Source of the DNA: a virus
Taxonomy: Duplodnaviria; Heunggongvirae; Uroviricota; Caudoviricetes
Length of the DNA: 42,975 nt
Virus record (IMG/VR): IMGVR_UViG_2563366932_000014
Reading direction: 5' to 3' (one strand)
Positions 1 to 40,648 of this stretch are shown here, piece after piece. The notes beneath the pieces are model-generated. The model saw nothing but the letters and a program-made list of their open reading frames with translations. It did no database searches and was not told where the DNA came from. Positions within the stretch are counted from its first letter, which is position 1, and every line of letters starts with the position of its first letter. The translations under genes were made by a program, and so were the position numbers.

Positions 1-198
1 ATGGCACTGGACAGTTATGCATCTCCGAATATTATTCCGGAGCTAAGACAACCGAATGCCGCAGCAGGTAAGATCACGCTAGGGGGGCTGGACAGAATGG
101 CTGTTACGCCCAGTGTGAAGAAAAGAAGGCTAAGTATGGTAGAATTTCCATACGCACAGACCTTGTTATCCGACTATACAGCCTGGAAGGCACTATGA
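1..198 (+). CDS. hypothetical small protein (65 aa), first gene of a two-gene operon
   Basis: ORF starts at window position 1; its stop overlaps the next start (ATGA at 195-198), suggesting translational coupling; no recognisable family. Confidence 0.3.
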   Translation: MALDSYASPNIIPELRQPNAAAGKITLGGLDRMAVTPSVKKRRLSMVEFPYAQTLLSDYTAWKAL

Positions 199-983
199 CA
201 AATCTACAACTGGAAGAAAGATTTAGGGCGCTTGAGAAAGATTACGATGCGCTCATTTCCACAAAATATACTGCGCAGAACGTTCTCACTCACACTATGG
301 AAACCTATGTTGATTCTGGTAAATATAAAAACTGGATCGCCAGAGTGAAAAAGTTAATAGAGGACAGCTACGGAAAAGAGTCTGATTATTACAATGACTT
401 CAATACTGTAAACAGCAGGTGGTCTTCTAATTACAATACACTGATCAAAAGTTATAAACCGTTGTTTGATGCGGCGAGAGATGATCTTGCGCACTCTGCT
501 GTCAGTACTAATACTCCTCAAGAAGGTTCGCCGCTGAGCCTCGTACTTAATATTCTTAACAGGTTTCCGACCTTTGTTCGCCAGTTAAAGAGGCGGTACA
601 ACGGCCGTGCGCCGCTTGAAGTTAATGATGAGTATGACGTACAGGATTTGATTTATGCACTGCTGACGCTTCATTTTAATGATATTAGGGCGGAAGAGTA
701 TACCCCCAGCTTTGCGGGCGCGGCCTCAAGACAGGACTTTCTTTTGAAAAAAGAGAAAATTGTGATAGAGGTGAAGAAAACCCGTGAATCTCTGGGAGCG
801 GGTAAAGTTGGTGGAGAGTTGCTTATTGATATGGCGCGCTACCGCGCTCACCAAGACTGCGATACGTTGATCTTGTTTGTATATGACCCGGATTGCTACA
901 TAAATAATCCTTTGGGCGTGAAAACCGATCTGGAATCTAAAGACGCGGAAGGAAAAGTGAAGGTTGTTATTGCGCAGTTCTGA
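195..983 (+). CDS. hypothetical protein (262 aa) with C-terminal PD-(D/E)xK-like nuclease motif
   Basis: long ORF coupled to upstream ORF; C-terminal residues ..EYDVQDLIYALL.. and ..EKIVIEVKK.. fit a D...(D/E)xK pattern by eye; fold not verified. Confidence 0.5.
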   Translation: MTNLQLEERFRALEKDYDALISTKYTAQNVLTHTMETYVDSGKYKNWIARVKKLIEDSYGKESDYYNDFNTVNSRWSSNYNTLIKSYKPLFDAARDDLAHSAVSTNTPQEGSPLSLVLNILNRFPTFVRQLKRRYNGRAPLEVNDEYDVQDLIYALLTLHFNDIRAEEYTPSFAGAASRQDFLLKKEKIVIEVKKTRESLGAGKVGGELLIDMARYRAHQDCDTLILFVYDPDCYINNPLGVKTDLESKDAEGKVKVVIAQF

Positions 984-2301: not shown

Positions 2302-2715
2302 TAGACTGGCCCCCTGAATCTCCAGACAACCAATATCACTTATTTAAGTGATAGTCTTAATACTAGTTTTTAGACTAGTCATTGGAGAGCAGATGATTGA
2401 TGTCTTAGGACCGGAGAAACGCAGACGGCGTACCACACAGGAAAAGATCGCAATTGTTCAGCAGAGCTTTGAACCAGGGATGACGGTCTCCCTCGTTGCC
2501 CGGCAACACGGTGTGGCAGCCAGCCAGTTATTTCTCTGGCGTAAGCAATACCAGGAAGGAAGTCTTACTGCTGTCGCCGCCGGAGAACAGGTTGTTCCTG
2601 CCTCTGAACTTGCTGCCGCCATGAAGCAGATTAAAGAACTCCAGCGCCTGCTCGGCAAGAAAACGATGGAAAATGAACTCCTCAAAGAAGCCGTTGAATA
2701 TGGACGGGCAAAAAA

Positions 2716-3735
<1,020 letters not shown>

Positions 3736-3833: not shown

Positions 3834-3891
3834 GTAGCTCGCCATCATGGGGTGTCGGGGGGCGGAGGTTCAAATCCTCTCGTGCCGACCA
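3834..3891 (+). other. 3' fragment of a tRNA-Pro(GGG)-like gene (anticodon loop through CCA), probable attachment-site remnant
   Basis: ..tcatggggtgtcgggg..ggaggttcaaatcctctcgtgccgacca: T-arm GGAGG-TTCAAAT-CCTCT, acceptor 3' strand and CCA present; no 5' strand pairs with the acceptor, so not an intact tRNA. Confidence 0.6.
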
Positions 3892-3906
3892 AAAATCCCT
3901 TAAGAA

Positions 3907-3931
3907 CCAGCCTATTATGGCTGGTTTTTTT
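3907..3931 (+). terminator. rho-independent terminator just after the tRNA fragment
   Basis: stem ccagcc/ggctgg, loop tattat, then 7 T. Confidence 0.7.
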
Positions 3932-4099
3932 ATGATTGTTTTTTATGCGGAGAAATACCGGGGAATAATTGGGGTAAAACACCTTTAGGCTATTCACTTA
4001 GCCTACCACCATCAAAATCTTTCCGAATGTATCCATCTCTTTTTTCTTATGCAGCTAAAACGAAGTCTTGATACTGTTTATTTACACAGATAAGAATAA

Positions 4100-4119
4100 T
4101 ACTGTCTACAAACGCAGTA
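4100..4119. promoter_or_regulatory. LexA (SOS) box-like site upstream of the dinI-like remnant
   Basis: tactgtctacaaacgcagta matches the TACTGT-N8-ACAGTA pattern with one mismatch, about 14 bp before the ATG. Confidence 0.5.
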
Positions 4120-4132
4120 CAAAAGAAGTGTT

Positions 4133-4380
4133 ATGCGTATTGAGATCTCCATAGCCAAAGACAAAATGACCAAATGCCAAACGGCGCTGTGGACGCGTTA
4201 AAGGAAGAATTAACCCAACACATTGGCAAGCGTTATGACGATGTGGAGATGATCGTAAAAGCCACCAGCAACGATAGTTTTTCAGTTAGACATACTGCAG
4301 ATAAAGATTGAGCTAAAACTTTCGTTCAGGAAACTCTGAATGATACCTGAGAGTCTACTGAAGAGTTGTTTGTTCACTAG
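4133..4380 (+). pseudogene. dinI-like gene remnant (frameshift plus two in-frame TGA stops)
   Basis: frame A gives [11 protein letters not shown]..; a second frame continues ..[37 protein letters not shown].. then stop; AKTFVQETLNDT stop ESTEELFVH stop; the pieces together resemble DinI (recalled, not searched). Confidence 0.5.
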
Positions 4381-4675
4381 TTAGCACGTAGGAAATCATT
4401 CAATACTCGCACTATCGGAAGTTCACCAGCCAGTCGTAGCACGTCCTTGCAAACGACGTGCCTACGGTTTCAATCACCTCTCACCATCAATTCTATCAAT
4501 AATAATTAAACAGCGCCTAGACAAAATAAATAACAACAAGTCAACAACCTCGACAGGATGCCGATGGGATGATGAAGAGATAAGAAAGAATAACCAGTAA
4601 AGCCCTAAAACGTCAGCGTTCAGACGCGTTTTTTACTTAATCGGTAACAAATACGTTGTATCATAGCAAAATAAA

Positions 4676-6625
4676 ATGATTGTTCTAAATCAGATTAACT
4701 CCTCACTTTTGTACAATGTCGCTTACAGGTATACCATGAAATCCGAGACGCTAACTGTCCAACAACTTTTTCAAGACCGCCGACAATACTGTGTTCCATT
4801 CTATCAACGTGCCTATGTATGGACTCAGCAAGACCAGTGGTCAGCTCTACTGGAGGATATCCTAGAGAAAGTACAATCCCGGCTCTCGGGTACAAAACCA
4901 ACTCCCCATTTCCTTGGTGCGGTTGTACTGGAACCTCAATCAAAAAAAGGATTATTAGGTGTAGATTCCATACATATTATTGATGGTCAGCAACGATTGA
5001 CCACTCTTCAATATGTTCTGGCATCCATCCGATTAGCATTACGTGCTACGGATCTTTCCAGCTTAGAGGCTCTCATTTCGCCTTGCCTGAAAAACTCAAA
5101 CGAAGACACAATGCGAAATAAAGAAGTAGAACGCTTCAAACTGTGGCCAACTTTTCGGGATCAAACTCATTTTATTCAAAGTTTTAATGTTGAAAATATT
5201 GACGATCTCCGGGACGTATTCTCTGATAGTTTCACGCAGCATGGTACGTTGCGTAAGCATTTTAATCACCCGCCATCACTAGAAGCATTATGTTTTTTTA
5301 CTGAAGCCTTTATAAAATGGATTAAAATAGAAAACCACTCACCACAAGAAAATGCTGTAGCTCTAATTGAGGCTGTCTTAACAGATCTGAAACTGGTAAG
5401 CATATTTCTCGAAGCTGAAGATGATGCCCAAATAATTTTTGAAACATTAAATGGGCGAGGGGCGGAACTTCATGCTACGGATCTTATTCGCAACTATATC
5501 TTTATGTGCGCTGAGCATGAAAATATTAATGCTATTGAATTATATGAAAATGAGTGGAAGAGCTTTGAAGATAAATACTGGTCGGAAAAACAACGCCGTG
5601 GACGTATTAATAAACCACGCATGGAGTGGCTAGTACATGCGACATTGCAATCAGAAAGGCAACGTGAAATTGATCTGTCTCGCCTTTACAATGAGTATCG
5701 TGATTATGTAAGTAAGGACTTGTCTTCACAACGAGCAGATCTGCAAGTAAAGCGCCTCAAACAATATGCATCACAATATAAAGAATTGGTTGATGGTTTT
5801 GGCACAACCCCCATCTCACACTTTGGATATCGCATCGCAGACTATGATGTGACGACACTTTATCCGCTTGCTTTGTTCATTTCGATAGCTAACATCGCTG
5901 ATGATGAGAAAGCAGCCATGTATAATGATCTTGTCTCCTACGTAGTACGAAGAGCCGTATGTGGCCTGACGCCAAAGAATTACAACAATGTATTTATGAA
6001 TGTATTGCGGCACTTGGCTAAAACGGAAATTTCCAGTGTTGAGTTACGTAATATCCTCAATAACTTAAATGGCGAAGCCTCACGTTGGCCTGGTGACTCA
6101 GAATTTCTCAACGCTTGCATCAATGCTCCACTTTATCCTGGCAGGCTCGACGCACCGAAAATGCGCTCAATGTTAACGGAACTTGAAAGAGAACTTTGTC
6201 GCCAAGTAAAGACAGAAAAGCCTGATGTTCCAAATCTTTCTAATCTCGATATCGATCATCTTATGCCTCAAAGTTGGTATTCCTGTTGGCCTCTCGAAAA
6301 TGGTCGTATGGTGACAAATTCAGATGCTACGGTATTGAACCAAATTGTTCTGTCTGGAACCGATCTTACCCCTGAACAGCTACTGGTAAGGAAACGGCAA
6401 CAAGCGATATCTACTTTGGGAAATCTAACTTTGCTTAACCTTAGCGTAAACCGTTCTGTTCAGAATGCTGTATTTCTGAAAAAACGTGATGCTCTCATCG
6501 TCCACACCAATCTACGACTGAACATTCCACTTATAGTTAAGGATAAATGGGATGAGGATGAAATCCTGGAGCGGGGTAAAAAGTTGGGGGAAATTGCATT
6601 GAAAGTATGGCCAAAACACGATTAA
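4676..6625 (+). CDS. GmrSD-family (DUF262 N-terminal, DUF1524/HNH-like C-terminal) putative type IV modification-dependent restriction endonuclease
   Basis: 649-aa ORF; N-terminal ..FYQRAYVW.. and DGQQR motif; C-terminal ..DIDHLMPQS.. and ..NLSVNRSVQN.. His-Me finger-like; AT-rich by inspection; start may be the ATG at 4736. Confidence 0.65.
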   Translation: MIVLNQINSSLLYNVAYRYTMKSETLTVQQLFQDRRQYCVPFYQRAYVWTQQDQWSALLEDILEKVQSRLSGTKPTPHFLGAVVLEPQSKKGLLGVDSIHIIDGQQRLTTLQYVLASIRLALRATDLSSLEALISPCLKNSNEDTMRNKEVERFKLWPTFRDQTHFIQSFNVENIDDLRDVFSDSFTQHGTLRKHFNHPPSLEALCFFTEAFIKWIKIENHSPQENAVALIEAVLTDLKLVSIFLEAEDDAQIIFETLNGRGAELHATDLIRNYIFMCAEHENINAIELYENEWKSFEDKYWSEKQRRGRINKPRMEWLVHATLQSERQREIDLSRLYNEYRDYVSKDLSSQRADLQVKRLKQYASQYKELVDGFGTTPISHFGYRIADYDVTTLYPLALFISIANIADDEKAAMYNDLVSYVVRRAVCGLTPKNYNNVFMNVLRHLAKTEISSVELRNILNNLNGEASRWPGDSEFLNACINAPLYPGRLDAPKMRSMLTELERELCRQVKTEKPDVPNLSNLDIDHLMPQSWYSCWPLENGRMVTNSDATVLNQIVLSGTDLTPEQLLVRKRQQAISTLGNLTLLNLSVNRSVQNAVFLKKRDALIVHTNLRLNIPLIVKDKWDEDEILERGKKLGEIALKVWPKHD

Positions 6626-23759: not shown

Positions 23760-25493
23760 TTAAAGCGAGCGGATCCCGTAGGACTCAATGTGGTCAGACA
23801 GCGTGTCTTCTTTCTCGTACAACATGGCTCTGCCAACCGCCATAATCAGCGCAACTGCACCATCGATTTTGTTTTCCGCCTGCTCTTTGACGGGTTTCAC
23901 CACATCATCGTTACCCGGAATGGTTTTGCCGACCACGTTGCCGATACACCAGGTCATGATGGGATTGCCATCATGATGAAAGCGCCCCGATTCAATTGCC
24001 GCTTCCAGCTCTTTCATCGGGTCGGACATGTTGGTGTAGTTCTGAATGATAGTGATGGGGTTCAGGTCTTCATCAGCAAGGTCATGTGACAACCCGGTCG
24101 CCCCGAAGGGGTCGATGGGTGACTCACTGACCGGGCTGATTTTGTTCGCCGCTTTGGCCTCCTCGAGGATGTAGCGATAATCCACCTCCGCACCATCGGT
24201 AACGGTCAGAACGCCCATTTCCACCCATTTCTGAAAGCGTTCGGCTGTCCGTCGATCTTCATTTTTCTCGACGCTGTACACCGTGTCATACGGTACCCAG
24301 AAACGCGGGGCCACACTGTAGTAATGCGTTTTACCGTCAATCTCGCGGGTATAAAGTCGCGCCATGCTGTTCATATCCAGCTTACGCGCCAGGTCAAAGG
24401 CCAGAATGCACGGCTGCCCCTCGAACTGCTCAAGGGTCAGTGATTTATCCTCGCAGCTCTGCCAGCTCACCAGGTTGAAATACGCCGAACGCGCCGACAC
24501 CCAGATATTGAGGTGTTTTGTTTTAAAGACGTTTGCCAGACGGGCGTTATTTTTCGCACGCTGCTGCTGACTTAACAAAAATTCGCGATAAACCGACACG
24601 CCAATATTTGGATTGGCTTTTTCCAGCACCTGCGGGTCGGTCCAGTCGTCACCTTCATCAACGGTATAGATGATCCCGAACAGTTCATCGTTAGGCACCG
24701 AGCCATTGAGCATCTCGATGACTTCCCGCCGCTTGTCGTAGCACGGCCCCTCAATGTTGTACCCGGCGGTGGTGATAGCCCACATCAGTGGCTGACGTCG
24801 CGCCCCCATCCCGGTAAGCATCGTGGTGTAAAGCGCATCGGTGGCGTGCTCGTGATATTCATCCACCACCGCACAGTGGGGTGATGAACCATCACCGGGG
24901 TTACCGATCAGCGGTTCAAACCGCGCGCCATCCTCCGGACGGTTCATGTTTGAGGCGTTAACCTCAATCCCGAACGCTTCCGTCAGCATGGGTGTGCGTT
25001 TACACATCAGTCGAGCCGGGCGAAAGACTTCCCACGCCTGTTTCTCTGTCGTGGCACCGGAATACACTTCCGCGCCAAACTCGTTATCACAGGCAAAACA
25101 ATACAGGGCAACACCGGCAGAGATTGCCGATTTGCCGTTCTTACGGGGGATTTCGGTATACACCTCCCGGAAGCGGCGCAGCCGGGAGCCTTTATTGACC
25201 CAGCCAAACGCGCAGCAGATCACAAAGAGCTGCCACGGCTCCAGCGTGATGGGCATCCTCTTAAATGCCCACTCACCCTTGGTGTGCGGCAACAGCTGAA
25301 TAAATTTGGCGGCCCGTTCAGCCAGGTCCTTGTCGAAGCGGTAACGAAACGACTTACTTTTTTCCGCCATCAGGTCATCAAGATGGCGCTGGCAGGCCTG
25401 AATCACAAACTGGCAGGCCACAATCTTTCCGCGCACGACATCCCGGGCATACTGATTGGCAGCATTTACGTTGGGGTAAGATTTCCGGCTCAT
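23760..25493 (-). CDS. terminase large subunit
   Basis: 577-aa ORF with ATPase and nuclease-like regions. Confidence 0.9.
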
Positions 25494-25993
25494 GATTCGA
25501 TGATTTTCAGAAACGGGTTAGTGGCTTTCTTCTGCCCCGCCAGGCCAATCAGACGCTGACGGCTGCTGGGGTCGAGTCCGAGCATTGCCCCCGTGCTGCT
25601 CATCTCGGACTCCTGTTCTTTTTTGGCTGTCAGCTCCGGATTTTTGACCCTGCCGCCCATTGCGCCGGTGATGGTATTGCCCTGTATGGCAATATTTTTC
25701 ACAGCACGTCGCCAGAACTCATAGGCCACGCACCACCGCTCAAGCACCGCGAGGTCAGTCACGCACAGCAGGCCCTGACCGCAGAGTTCTTTGGTTGTCA
25801 GTTGCCACATGATCGTGGCGAGAGGGAGATCTTCTTCAGCGAACCACTCCGGTGGCTCAACACCTTTGATGGGCGTAAAAACAGGTTCATCTTTGTTCAG
25901 GGCTCGCTTGCCGGGGTTTCCGGCCAGCGCCTTGCGCGCCGTTGGCTTGGGGCGACGCCCGGAACGCCCCGCCGTTCCAGCCATATGCGGCAC
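25490..25993 (-). CDS. terminase small subunit (P27-like)
   Basis: 167-aa ORF overlapping the large-subunit start. Confidence 0.7.
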
Positions 25994-26109: not shown

Positions 26110-26460
26110 TCACTTCAGTCGTTCACGGGCCGTCTTCGCCTTATGACACGGCCAGCACAGGCTCTGCAGATTGCAGTCTGCATCAGTGCCGCCATGCGCT
26201 TTAGGGATGATGTGGTCAACGGTTTTCGCCTCACGCACCACACCGACATGCAGGCACAACTGACACAGGCCTTTGTCACGCTTCAGCACGCGCGCGCGGA
26301 TAACATCCCACTTCGAACCGTAGCCGCGCTGGTGACGGGATTGTCCTGGCTTGTATTGTTTCCAGCCTTCGCTTTTGTGGCTTTCACAATAGCCTGACGG
26401 ATCAGTGGTGGTTTGGCGGCAGCCGCGAACGCGGCAGGCTTTTGGGGTTCGTGGGGGCAT
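26110..26460 (-). CDS. HNH endonuclease (packaging-associated)
   Basis: Cys pairs plus ..DHIIPKAHGGTD..N..LC..CH.. HNH motif, upstream of terminase. Confidence 0.8.
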   Translation of the reverse strand: MPPRTPKACRVRGCRQTTTDPSGYCESHKSEGWKQYKPGQSRHQRGYGSKWDVIRARVLKRDKGLCQLCLHVGVVREAKTVDHIIPKAHGGTDADCNLQSLCWPCHKAKTARERLK

Positions 26461-26562
26461 TTAAAGTGGGATCTAACTCTAATAATTTAAAAAATTTAAT
26501 TGGGTCTTGATATTAATCACATAGACTCAATGCTCTTTAGTTCTTACATAGGTGGTTGTATT

Positions 26563-27003
26563 ATGAGTATCCCCAGTTTAGATGTTCATAAAGTTGTTAA
26601 GTGCGCAGAGCATAAAAAGGCTTTAGATGCAATATCTCTCAAACTTAAGAATAACATTATTGACTCAAGCTCTGAATACGATTTTCTTGGCGACACAATA
26701 ATTTTCAATAAAGATAAAAAAAATAGGTTAACCCTCAAACTTTCAACATATGAACTAGAACTTATTTTCAAAGAAACACTGCTAGTCATTGATGAAGCTC
26801 CTGTATTGAAGTTTGCTGCCATTGACCCAACCGATGAAAATAACAACGAGCTGATTGATTTATTTTTATCCAAAGGTGGATTTATTTATATTAGAGAATA
26901 CAAATCCGAGCCACATTATGAGTATGGCGACACTTCTCTATTTTTACATATACTTGACGCTACTCTTAAAGAGCTTAAATCTGCAAACAAAATATCCTAT
27001 TAA
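26563..27003 (+). CDS. hypothetical protein, AT-rich insertion transcribed against the late operon
   Basis: ORF with AGGTGG RBS before the ATG at 26563 (listed ORF starts at 26500); very AT-rich by inspection; no recognisable family. Confidence 0.5.
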   Translation: MSIPSLDVHKVVKCAEHKKALDAISLKLKNNIIDSSSEYDFLGDTIIFNKDKKNRLTLKLSTYELELIFKETLLVIDEAPVLKFAAIDPTDENNNELIDLFLSKGGFIYIREYKSEPHYEYGDTSLFLHILDATLKELKSANKISY

Positions 27004-27109
27004 ATAAATTTTTGCTAACATAGCCCCGCGCCATGACAAGATTTTCTGTTCTAGATGCAAGGGCTATGTGTGAATATCTATAAACAAAAACCCCATCCGG
27101 TGATTTTTG

Positions 27110-27361
27110 TCATTTTTTAGCCATCTCAATTGCGGCATCAAAAAGTCGTTCAAGAATAAAATCAGGGTACTGTAATTTTTCTTGCTCGATATGAAGCTCA
27201 TAAATTTTCCCTTCCCACTCCCATTTAAAATTAAATCCAGAAGCAGAAGGTGCGAAATGTGTTTTAGCTTTAGGGTTAGCGTAACCAGCAACAGTCAACA
27301 CATCAAACTTAAAATCTTGAGGTTTAATACGCATAATCATATCCTTTGCCAAGTTCATCAT
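27110..27361 (-). CDS. hypothetical protein (83 aa)
   Basis: AT-rich ORF between the lysis cassette and packaging genes. Confidence 0.4.
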   Translation of the reverse strand: MMNLAKDMIMRIKPQDFKFDVLTVAGYANPKAKTHFAPSASGFNFKWEWEGKIYELHIEQEKLQYPDFILERLFDAAIEMAKK

Positions 27362-27431
27362 TATTCTTCGCGATTATAAAACAATGAATAAAATCATTAA
27401 AGCATAGACGTTAAATATCCTCAAAATGTGA

Positions 27432-27869
27432 TTAGTTGGGACATTGCGTCCTGATATACTCCTGCAAGTAATTGACCTGTGAGGTTATCTTGTCGATTCC
27501 ACTTCGGAGACGGTAATAATGGAGTTCAGCATCTGCTGTAAGTCTAGGGCTTTCTCCATCGCCCATGCCGCTGGCTCCGGTCGTTGACTTTGTACAGGTG
27601 GCGGCGACTTGCAGGCGCTTATGCCCAGCAGAAACATCAGCACGAAGACTTTCGATAGTCGCATTAGCATCAGCAAGCTCCTTTGTATATCTGGCATCGA
27701 GTTCAGCTACATTACGTTGACGCTTCTGCATATCAGCGATGATGGATGTGGCTTTATCGCGCTGTACTTTGTAGACGATGGCGTCATCACGGTAATTATC
27801 AACAGCCCATGACAAGCAGACGATGATGCAGATAACCAGAGCGGATATAATCACCGTTACTCTGCTCAT
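27432..27869 (-). CDS. Rz: i-spanin Rz
   Basis: [22 protein letters not shown].. and overall translation closely match lambda Rz (recalled). Confidence 0.85.
27485..27670 (-). CDS. Rz1: o-spanin Rz1 (embedded in Rz in the +1 frame)
   Basis: embedded ORF with lipobox-like ..LLGISAC and proline-rich segment. Confidence 0.65.
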
Positions 27870-28342
27870 ACCTGAATCTCTTTGACCGTTCCGCCGGCTT
27901 CTTTGAATTTTTCAATCAGGCTGTCAGCCTTATGCTCAAACTGACCATAACCAGCTCCCGGCAGTGAAGCCCAGATATTGCTGCAACGGTCGATAGCCTG
28001 ACGAATATCACCGCGATCAATCATCGGTAAAGCACCACGCTCTTTAATCTGCTGCAGTGCAACAGCATCCTGGCTTTTTGGAGAGAAGTCTTTCAGTCCA
28101 AGCTGTTTACGGTATGCATCCCACCAGCGGGAAAGAAGCTGGTAGCGCCCGGCAGCCGTTGATTTGAGTTTTGGGTTTAGCGTGACAAGTCTGCGAGGGT
28201 GATCGGAGTAATCAGTGAATATTTCTCCGCCCACAATGACGTCATAACCATGATTACGTGTCGGTTGTAGCCCATTATCCGTTCCTTCTGACCAGGCCAC
28301 CATATCGAGGAAAGCTTTACGCTGAGGATTAAGATTTTGCAT
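27866..28342 (-). CDS. R: endolysin (lambda R-type lytic transglycosylase)
   Basis: ..[39 protein letters not shown].. near-identical to lambda R (recalled). Confidence 0.9.
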
Positions 28343-28785: not shown

Positions 28786-29121
28786 TTATTTTACATCCCA
28801 AGGTAGTTCCTCAAGAGAGAAGACTAATTCATTATCAATAATTTCGTATTCTGCATAACCTTCAACCTCTCCTGAGAAGTTATTGTCAACGCATCCTTCA
28901 TAATAGCTATATGGTGCTATAAAGTGAAACCCATATTCATCTATCTCTGTGATTTCAAAATTGTAGTAATCGTAAGAATATCGAATATCATCATCAGAAA
29001 TAGAACTAAGTACATAGTTATTAAATTTATCGGAATGCTTAACGATAAGTTCTGACAACGCGTCAAGATTCTCTGGAGAGATATTTCCTAACGGTAATCT
29101 GTACTCAACGGCATTAATCAT
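28786..29121 (-). CDS. hypothetical acidic, aromatic-rich small protein (111 aa)
   Basis: AGGAGG RBS; AT-rich; lies between the late terminator and holin. Confidence 0.5.
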   Translation of the reverse strand: MINAVEYRLPLGNISPENLDALSELIVKHSDKFNNYVLSSISDDDIRYSYDYYNFEITEIDEYGFHFIAPYSYYEGCVDNNFSGEVEGYAEYEIIDNELVFSLEELPWDVK

Positions 29122-29306: not shown

Positions 29307-30101
29307 TTATCTCGTCACCTTTCTCAATTGTGTTTCAGCATATGCTTCTTCCTGCCAGCACTTTGTTACTAGTTTATCAATTACGTCTGCATATCCTTTG
29401 TACCACTGATAATCAGTCAGGTCTGGAACCAGCTTCTGGACATGACGTCGTGCCAGTGTAGTCGGTAAACGGCTAAACCGGTTTCCATTGCAACGCCCAC
29501 AAGTCTTATAAACAGGCGTGCCATGAAGCCGGGTTCTTTTTTCATCCAGGACAATACCTTTACCCTTACACCCTCTGCACGCCGTGCTGACTTCTCCCTT
29601 GCCATGACAATGCTGACACAGTTCCTTCACCCACTCTTCTTTGATAACGGATTCCCCGCTTCTGGAATGTTTCACCACTTCGCGCAATACATTATGAAAT
29701 CCAGTACCAGTACAATGCTCACAGCGAGCCTTACTTGCCGCAGACCTGGAATAATCAGCAAAGGCAAAATTCACAAGGTAAGGGATGATCTGTAACCGGG
29801 TTTCTTCACTCAATTTGTTCAATGTCGGGTTATCCAGTGCCATCGCGTAATTGAGCAGGCCTTCAATCGCAAACTGAGGATCCTGAACACCAACTTTTGC
29901 CAGGAATAAGGCAAACCCAAGCGGTGCTTTCGACTGCACCATCCCCTGCGCAGCCATTACATCCGTAATTGTTAAACCACCCGAGCCTGTCGCCGATGCG
30001 TCATCGCTCAATTTTGGAGATTTTGGGGAGTAATATTTCGGTAAGGCTTCAAGGTTCATGCTCGTTCTCCACTTACACCAGTACGCCAATTGCCAGCGCA
30101 C
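29307..30101 (-). CDS. putative late antiterminator (Q-like) with four CxxCxGxG zinc-finger repeats
   Basis: position directly upstream of late promoter/terminator and lysis genes; CEHCTGTG, CQHCHGKG, CRGCKGKG, CGRCNGNR repeats. Confidence 0.5.
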   Translation of the reverse strand: MRWQLAYWCKWRTSMNLEALPKYYSPKSPKLSDDASATGSGGLTITDVMAAQGMVQSKAPLGFALFLAKVGVQDPQFAIEGLLNYAMALDNPTLNKLSEETRLQIIPYLVNFAFADYSRSAASKARCEHCTGTGFHNVLREVVKHSRSGESVIKEEWVKELCQHCHGKGEVSTACRGCKGKGIVLDEKRTRLHGTPVYKTCGRCNGNRFSRLPTTLARRHVQKLVPDLTDYQWYKGYADVIDKLVTKCWQEEAYAETQLRKVTR

Positions 30102-39673: not shown

Positions 39674-39781
39674 AAATCAGCACGTACGAATTCAAACTCT
39701 GCCATAAAAGAACATATAAGTAATTTATTAACATATAGATATAGGTTATATTACAAATTGAAAAATTATTGGAGAGCAACA

Positions 39782-40648
39782 ATGAATCAAAATCCATTCT
39801 CATTCTATGACTTTCTTGGATATTTAATACCAGGTGGTTTTTTTATCCTATTAATGTATTTCTGTGGTTTGACATTCGATCTAGATATTGTTATTGACTT
39901 AAGTGAATTGCTCAGAGGTCAAAGTCAAATCTTTGGCATTTTGAACTACGCTTCAATAGTTATTATATCTTATATAGCTGGACATTTTATTTCTATCACG
40001 TCAGCATTTTTTATCGAAAAATACATGAATAAAGAATTAGGATATCCTTCCAAATATCTATTTAAAAAATTGATAGATACCTCAGAAAGCATTTGTAGCC
40101 CATCATGCGATGAGAGAAGCGCTGATAAAAAAACAAAAATAAAGAATCGCATAATCAAATGCGTATTATGTCCAATAATACTATGGGATTTTATAACACA
40201 AAAACTATGTTATTCTCAATCTCTACCATTTCATTTAGCTAATACAACATGGTTAATGATCAAAGAAGGTTATGAGAAAAAGTTCATAACAAATCGCCAA
40301 TTATTACAAGATAAAAACGGACTTGATGATGATCTCTTCAGATTGGCATATCATTATGTTTATGAGTTTTCAAAACAACATCAAACAAAAATTCAAAACT
40401 ATGTTGCATTATATGGTTTTTGCAGAAACATATGTTTAATCTTTATAATTTCATTTTGGGTATCAGTTCCAACCTTTATTTATCGATTATGTACTCATAG
40501 TGATTATCTTTATAGTTTACTTTCAATAATGCTTAGCTTTTTCTTCGTCTATGTTTTCTATGTTGGTTTTGTTAAATTTTATAGAAGATATACTTTAGAA
40601 GTATTAATGGCATTTGCTGTACTTCAAAGTAACGACACTATTCGTTAA
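39782..40648 (+). CDS. very AT-rich four-TM membrane protein of unknown function
   Basis: two N-terminal and two C-terminal hydrophobic helices around a ~140-aa soluble region; GGAGAG RBS before the ATG at 39782; listed ORF starts at 39758. Confidence 0.55.
   Translation: MNQNPFSFYDFLGYLIPGGFFILLMYFCGLTFDLDIVIDLSELLRGQSQIFGILNYASIVIISYIAGHFISITSAFFIEKYMNKELGYPSKYLFKKLIDTSESICSPSCDERSADKKTKIKNRIIKCVLCPIILWDFITQKLCYSQSLPFHLANTTWLMIKEGYEKKFITNRQLLQDKNGLDDDLFRLAYHYVYEFSKQHQTKIQNYVALYGFCRNICLIFIISFWVSVPTFIYRLCTHSDYLYSLLSIMLSFFFVYVFYVGFVKFYRRYTLEVLMAFAVLQSNDTIR

Follow-up and report, generated by a model that had tools for sequence, protein, structure and literature searches.

Two uncharacterised single-gene cargo families between the lysis and packaging genes of an Escherichia coli prophage

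Background

Accessory genes of the kind found in prophages are often called morons, in a sense that reportedly goes back to Juhala and Hendrix and their comparison of HK97 and HK022. The nearest positional counterpart to the genes studied here is bor of phage lambda, which lies after Rz/Rz1 and near cos, is antisense to the late operon and is expressed in the lysogen. The junction between the lysis and packaging genes of lambdoid and HK97-like prophages is already recognised as a cargo slot.

We analysed a stretch of 42,975 nucleotides (called the window below) that comes from an E. coli prophage integrated at or next to ssrA, and we concentrated on two small convergent genes, ORF146 and ORF74, that form an AT-rich island at this junction. 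The island genes resemble morons in that their composition is unlike that of the flanks, they are inserted precisely between conserved phage genes, they are absent from close relatives, and they have putative promoters of their own and a terminator-like hairpin. The slot and orientation of ORF146 are identical to those of lambda bor. Unlike Bor, both island proteins are predicted to be soluble and have neither signal peptide nor lipobox; they have no sequence similarity to Bor or to any named moron, and their expression in the lysogen is putative. This kind of feature is well known and is not a surprise; the two protein families are uncharacterised.

Results

Prophage setting and boundaries of the island

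The window is 99.96-99.99% identical to the chromosome of strain ATCC 11775, leaving aside a 1327-nt insertion sequence at 2305-3631. The genes around the island are as follows.

29307-30101, minus strand: Q antiterminator (late gene)
Between the Q antiterminator and the lysozyme, minus strand: an AT-rich 111-aa ORF, then the holin (late genes)
27866-28342, minus strand: lysozyme (late gene)
27432-27869, minus strand: Rz (PF03245) with embedded Rz1
26461-27431, between Rz and HNH: the island, 33% GC
26110-26460, minus strand: HNH endonuclease (PF01844)
25490-25993, minus strand: TerS of the P27 family (family match)
23760-25493, minus strand: TerL, after which the HK97-type head genes come

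A 70-aa ORF at 27485-27697 (minus strand) lies out of frame inside Rz at a position where RefSeq has no annotation, and its N-terminus is lipoprotein-like (LLGISAC); presumably this is the Rz1 o-spanin.

The initial annotation placed two genes in strongly AT-rich DNA at a common cargo site between Rz and the HNH and terminase genes, and this description holds in all its parts. The flanks are Rz on one side and HNH, the P27-family TerS and TerL on the other, all on the minus strand, and the island spans exactly the interval from the Rz stop codon (27432) to the HNH start codon (26460). Its GC content is 0.33 compared with a window mean of 0.50 (z = -2.5, within the lowest 1% of 971-nt windows) and with 0.47-0.59 in the surrounding phage genes. 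Codon usage follows the same pattern, with a GC3 of 0.29 in ORF146 and 0.25 in ORF74 versus 0.44-0.66 for Rz, lysozyme, holin, HNH, TerS and TerL.

Homology to more than 4000 E. coli genomes ends at these same stop and start codons. Of the 5426 complete E. coli genomes, over 4000 have the Rz and HNH flanks, about 90-93% identical, and only 102-105 have the island, every copy being at least 99% identical. Sister E. coli prophages (loci L006-L008), with HNH proteins that are 94-96% identical and DNA flanks that are about 91-93% identical, fill the slot with other genes, namely those for an 83-aa hypothetical protein, a 229-aa hypothetical protein and a DUF2441 protein. None of the alternative cargo in the sister prophages and related loci matched a PADLOC defence model. 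The space between the lysis and packaging genes is thus an ordinary phage cargo slot that holds, in this case, two uncharacterised protein families; what this locus adds to the recognised slot are base-pair-exact boundaries and interchangeable contents.

Two related loci show further rearrangements at this junction. In a Citrobacter koseri prophage (L013), two more late-strand genes lie at 3887-5922 (minus strand) between the ORF146 homolog and HNH; they encode a 485-aa protein with a weak match to GT2 glycosyltransferases and a 198-aa protein, and are further cargo at the lysis-packaging junction. In E. coli ZJ3920 (L030, 2501-3361) an IS1 element interrupts the island after 148 nt; the remainder of the island is absent together with the lysis and early regions, and the terminase side is fused to yfdR-side genes.

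ORF146 and its 5' region

The presence of a 146-aa ORF directed against late transcription and equipped with its own ribosome binding site had been proposed from the letters of the DNA, and we found both the gene, which is a RefSeq coding sequence, and the site, at the following positions.

26461-26562, plus strand: 5' non-coding region of the ORF146 cassette, with a candidate weak promoter and the Shine-Dalgarno sequence
26507-26512 and 26529-26534, plus strand: candidate promoter of ORF146, with -35 TTGATA, a 16-nt spacer and -10 AATGCT
26550-26555, plus strand: Shine-Dalgarno sequence AGGTGG, 7 nt before the ATG
26563-27003, plus strand: ORF146 (WP_000026993.1), 146 aa, predicted soluble, pI 5.4, antisense to the late operon
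26716-26723, plus strand: A8 homopolymer in codons 51-54 of ORF146, the site of the frameshift allele

The chance of a 146-codon open frame in DNA of the island's composition is about 1.6e-5, and dN/dS is 0.3-0.4 (Nei-Gojobori, unsaturated comparisons). These values indicate that ORF146 is a genuine coding gene under purifying selection.

The 99 nt that precede the ATG are 65-67% identical to the corresponding DNA of the Salmonella/Citrobacter-type homologs (L019, L002), and the coding sequences are 74-75% identical; beyond these 99 nt and past the stop codon, these loci and the E. coli locus are unrelated. Within the conserved stretch TTGAT(A/G) and TCAATG are kept at a fixed spacing, which in the window corresponds to TTGATA, 16 nt and AATGCT, and the more distant lineages have TGTTATAAT or TATAAT at the equivalent upstream place. 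A simple sigma-70 consensus scan of the region upstream of ORF146 gave no promoter with at least 9 of 12 matches, and from this we infer that the promoter is weak or unconventional. The conserved antisense placement and the conserved 5' flank of about 100 nt fit an autonomous transcription unit.

Relatives and genomic neighborhoods of ORF146

An exhaustive HMMER search of 1.84 billion representative proteins returned only six clusters for ORF146, three of which are fragments. The full-length relatives are 62%, 35% and 30% identical (homologs range over 30-64%), and one further relative with 42% identity comes from a viral contig. The hosts are Salmonella enterica, Citrobacter freundii, C. koseri, C. 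gillenii, Atlantibacter hermannii and E. coli. The initial annotation recognised no family for either gene, and the databases agree: scans of Pfam, PHROGs, NCBIfam and PADLOC gave no family match for ORF146, ORF74 or any member of their families (with the PADLOC-DB v2 HMMs, the best E-value of ORF146 was a non-significant 0.016 over 31 residues, and ORF74 had none). DNA and protein searches of cultured phages and plasmids matched neither gene, a scan of GTDB representative genomes found no relative, and literature searches by accession and locus tag found no publications or transcription data for these proteins. A paper on Gifsy defence genes concerns an ATPase unrelated to either protein (PMC12724215). 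Both genes are conserved across genera in other prophages with dN/dS below 1, and the two families, new to all four collections, are restricted to the Enterobacteriaceae and related enterobacteria (ORF74 also occurs in Pantoea).

We examined about 20 loci from 7 lineages, covering 30-100% protein identity, and in all of them the ORF146 homolog is antisense to the late operon. It is a single AT-rich gene (GC 0.30-0.35 vs 0.47-0.56 in the flanks) placed where the lysis cassette ends and before the packaging genes begin, and the packaging modules next to it are of several kinds, among them the lambda gpA/Nu1 type (L021). It usually faces an HNH gene, the product of which is 36-100% identical to that of the window. 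We considered ORF146 as an immunity or inhibitor partner of HNH and rejected this role, given that L021 has an intact homolog beside a gpA terminase, a DUF1441/Nu1-like gene and a lambda portal with only a 29-aa remnant of HNH, and that HNH genes 94-96% identical to ours occur without ORF146. To judge from these neighborhoods, the association with HNH reflects ancestry and slot position, not a functional requirement.

The HNH remnants themselves are worth describing. At 5548-5634 in L021 and 5539-5634 in L018, the ORF146 cassette is accompanied by N-terminal pieces of 29-32 aa that are 65% identical to the window's HNH; L021 has a different packaging module, and L018 a more distant HNH gene. 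These pieces appear to be traces of the recombination junctions through which the cassette was transferred.

Predicted fold of ORF146

The N-terminus of ORF146, MSIPSLDVHKVVKCAEH, has no hydrophobic leader and the protein has no transmembrane segment (GRAVY -0.20); the same is true of ORF74, which begins MRIKPQDFKFD (GRAVY -0.47). A Bor-like lipoprotein was rejected for both, as their N-termini contain neither a signal peptide nor a lipobox cysteine.

With only three sequences in the alignment, AlphaFold returned a pLDDT of 39 for ORF146. Three distant homologs from the exhaustive search were added later, and the resulting six-sequence alignment, which includes the relatives of 30-35% identity, produced a confident model (pLDDT 84.8, pTM 0.76). 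In the model, a helix of 31 residues at the N-terminus is followed by seven antiparallel strands and then by a helix at the C-terminus, and the predicted protein may be described as a small, soluble alpha-beta sandwich of frataxin-like topology. Most invariant residues are hydrophobic and belong to the core; the others are D7, K18, D22, K29 and D34, all on the first helix. We saw no catalytic motif, and the model has no enzyme-like match.

Foldseek comparison of the model with the PDB found nothing significant. The sole significant structural match among viral models is an uncharacterised 151-aa protein of Burkholderia phage Mana (UniProt A0A873WDE3; E 1.4e-5, TM 0.72/0.70), which, to judge by its length, is CPT_Mana_015. 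Like ORF146, CPT_Mana_015 occupies a variable late-region slot of a temperate phage, in its case between the tail completion genes and gpV, and a terminator follows it. Unlike ORF146, it is co-oriented with the late genes and comes from a P2-like phage that infects a different host; the sequences of the two proteins show no detectable similarity.

The likeness to frataxin is one of topology. Frataxin/CyaY structures (PDB 4hs5, 4jpd) and the complex I subunit Nqo15 (2fug_7) are 13% identical to ORF146; the N-terminal helix of ORF146 is much longer than that of frataxin, and no acidic ridge is seen among its conserved residues. There was no Pfam hit to frataxin, a profile search of PDB sequences found no frataxin (for the ORF146 and ORF74 families alike, such searches gave only noise), and hhalign against an approximate E. 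coli CyaY sequence gave a probability of 0.07%. The scores of the E2/UBC, Mediator and type III secretion chaperone folds come close to that of frataxin; the resemblance is therefore a shared topology and not evidence of homology. On the strength of the model, we take ORF146 to be a binding protein of frataxin-like topology and not a member of the frataxin family.

ORF74 and the convergent spacer

The second gene and the DNA around it are arranged as follows.

27004-27109, no strand assigned: convergent intergenic region, with a long hairpin (arms 27018-27026 and 27061-27069)
About 27083-27111: A/U-armed hairpin that overlaps the ORF74 stop codon, weaker than a canonical terminator
27110-27334, minus strand: ORF74 (WP_001220676.1), 74 aa, predicted soluble, on the late strand directly after Rz
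27110-27361, minus strand: open frame of the 83-aa reading of ORF74
27335-27431, minus strand: region upstream of ORF74, with the Shine-Dalgarno sequence AAAGGA at 27347-27342
27378-27373, minus strand: -10 element of ORF74, a perfect TATAAT with a weak -35 TTTAAT (candidate promoter)

The minus-strand gene was initially read as 83 aa. The gene is real and its length needs correction: the true start is almost certainly Met10 at 27334, because RefSeq calls a protein of 74 aa, intact homologs have 72-74 aa, and the motif AAAGGA-N6-ATG at Met10 is invariant across four lineages, while the sequence further upstream diverges. A 74-codon open frame has a chance of about 4e-3 in DNA of the island's composition. 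With a dN/dS of 0.05-0.2 (Nei-Gojobori, unsaturated comparisons), ORF74 is a genuine coding gene under purifying selection and more strongly conserved than ORF146. Its relatives, 33-78% identical, occur in Enterobacter, Pantoea, Citrobacter and viral contigs and represent at least 8 lineages. All are encoded on the late strand, upstream of TerS genes that match two different query families and, where a spanin gene could be identified, 70-700 nt downstream of it.

The TATAAT element is about 40 nt upstream of ORF74 in the window and likewise about 38 nt upstream in the Enterobacter copy; in the simple consensus scan it stays below the threshold, with no 9/12 match upstream of ORF74. The Enterobacter and Pantoea copies (L003, L005) have a canonical GC hairpin with a T-run within 4 nt downstream. 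The presence of the TATAAT and of terminators after the homologs means that purely late expression of ORF74 cannot be assumed. The hairpins of the convergent spacer have z-scores of -2.45 and -3.45, and the A/U-armed one is a possible weak bidirectional terminator. The spacer matched no Rfam family and is no repeat, and it shares no homology with the DNA that follows ORF146 homologs in other lineages.

Independent distributions of the two genes

The island had been described as an inserted gene pair. This part of the initial annotation did not survive the comparison of neighborhoods, since ORF146 and ORF74 have independent distributions and co-occur only in E. coli copies that are about 90% identical or more. 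Outside these copies, ORF146 homologs occur without ORF74 and have unrelated small genes as neighbors (the 76-aa neighbor in L002 is 18% identical to ORF74), and ORF74 homologs are never accompanied by ORF146, their companions being DUF2158, other small genes or none. A toxin-antitoxin or other two-component pair was rejected on these distributions and because strain UTI89 keeps ORF74 intact with a truncated ORF146.

The A8 tract and allelic decay of ORF146

Over the 901 nt compared, the sole difference between UTI89 and the window is that UTI89 lacks one A of the A8 run, and this 1-nt deletion cuts ORF146 short at 55 aa. In 44 of the 102 E. coli copies there is a difference within a probe of 78 nt centred on this run, and we estimate that a frameshifted ORF146 is probably present in about 43% of the E. 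coli copies, UTI89 being the only one aligned directly. The 55-aa allele is present on 871 contigs and the intact gene on at least 1000. In a variant of 89-94% identity (L024), ORF146 has a frameshift and ORF74 a stop codon. The existence of frameshifted copies and of this doubly damaged locus implies that the genes are dispensable for the lysogen. Judging by the protein alignment, the relatives in Salmonella/Citrobacter, Atlantibacter and C. koseri lack the A tract, which looks more like a spot prone to mutation than like a purpose-built switch.

The prophage bearing ORF146 occurs in well-studied extra-intestinal pathogenic strains (UTI89, APEC O1, S88, UM146 and ATCC 11775), and the natural intact (A8) and truncated (A7) alleles make an isogenic comparison straightforward.

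Discussion

On balance, we favor the explanation that the island holds two independent single-gene morons and that ORF146 is expressed from its own weak promoter, probably in the lysogen, as a partner-binding protein. The two genes would have been acquired independently and now stand side by side in the Rz/Rz1-HNH slot of a prophage with an HK97-type head. ORF146 would be a self-contained cassette made up of the conserved 5' region of about 100 nt, the Shine-Dalgarno sequence and the coding sequence. The gene is antisense to the late operon; therefore, Q-dependent late transcription cannot express it, and it would depend on its own weak promoter of the sigma-70 type, with the lysogen as the most likely setting. 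Its product may act by binding a partner rather than as an enzyme, the conserved charged residues being placed by the model on the long N-terminal helix. ORF74, with a -10 element of its own and a terminator-like hairpin, would be read through in lytic growth and possibly also transcribed alone. Points that weigh against this explanation are that the window shows no strong promoter consensus upstream of ORF146, that about 43% of E. coli copies are probably frameshifted, and that both genes are damaged in L024.

As for what ORF146 does, our preferred specific guess, a tentative one, is a prophage-encoded exclusion or defence factor, although neither protein nor the alternative slot cargo matches a PADLOC defence model. 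Going further, ORF146 might found a new family of single-protein, non-enzymatic factors in phage conflict, acting in exclusion and defence or as an anti-defence protein that enters first; we regard this as doubtful. The frataxin-like sandwich would then be made from its own promoter, against the late operon, to sequester a phage or host protein, and slippage in the A8 tract would have silenced it in many lineages of E. coli. Should one of the genes influence phage susceptibility or host fitness, it would provide a new single-gene accessory function; otherwise the genes are unexplained prophage cargo.

Other explanations make the genes serve the phage itself. T7 Ocr, an early anti-restriction protein, is the positional model for the rather unlikely case that ORF146 is a first-entering, early anti-restriction or anti-defence protein with a promoter near the genome end. 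By analogy with HK97, cos would lie between HNH and TerS and the last DNA packaged would be the first ejected, so that the ORF146 promoter and gene, pointing inward, would be among the first DNA to reach a new host. Both the cos position and the entry polarity come from that analogy, however, and lambda bor, in the same position and orientation, is established as a lysogen-expressed gene. The two late genes between the homolog and HNH in L013 and the other cargo before the terminase genes at L021, where the homolog adjoins a lambda-type packaging module, also speak against this case, and the similarity of ORF146 to Acr proteins is within noise. A role of one or both genes in the lytic cycle (lysis timing or packaging) is unlikely. 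It would suit ORF74 best, a strongly selected late-strand gene co-transcribed with the late operon and lying 70-700 nt beyond the spanin gene in the lineages with an identified one, but sister prophages with near-identical lysis and packaging genes have neither ORF146 nor ORF74. ORF74 itself accompanies different lysis cassettes and terminase genes that match different query families, ORF146 is antisense to late transcription and is present with or without HNH, and neither gene is in any cultured phage record.

That the ORFs are in decay, or fill xenogeneic AT-rich DNA without any function, is very unlikely. The estimated frequency of the frameshift allele, the two lesions of L024 and the lack of any known family or function for either gene could be read in that way, but full-length homologs of 30-64% identity in four genera, dN/dS values well below 1, conserved Shine-Dalgarno sequences and a confidently predicted fold speak against it. 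The adjacency of the convergent genes, their common AT-rich composition and their common terminator-like region in 102 E. coli genomes are what a single two-gene module, either toxin-antitoxin or two-component defence, would display. Such a module is highly improbable and largely refuted by the distributions given above: the genes do not co-occur beyond the near-identical E. coli copies, each has its own set of neighbors elsewhere (including the ORF74-unlike 76-aa neighbor in L002 and DUF2158, other small genes or nothing beside ORF74 homologs), and UTI89 retains ORF74 with a truncated ORF146.

Other features of the prophage

Several more stretches of the window stand out. The interval between Q and the holin, which is the slot where Stx phages carry their toxin genes, contains a third AT-rich single gene at 28786-29121 (minus strand; 111 aa, GC 0.33, pI 4.05), the sole match of which is phrog_13663, of unknown function (E 9e-54). 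A 296-aa ORF without a Pfam match adjoins the integrase at 39758-40648 (plus strand), in the most AT-rich stretch of the window (GC 0.27-0.30). The 1327-nt insertion relative to ATCC 11775 contains HTH_Tnp_1 and rve ORFs and therefore belongs to the IS3 family; there is a 9-nt overlap between the flanking alignments, and the element splits a gene that is annotated with a GIY-YIG domain in ATCC 11775. At the tail-fibre end of the window there is restriction-type cargo at 4676-6625 and 195-983 (both plus strand), consisting of a GmrSD-type (DUF262) type IV restriction enzyme and a protein with a DpnII/MboI-like endonuclease domain.
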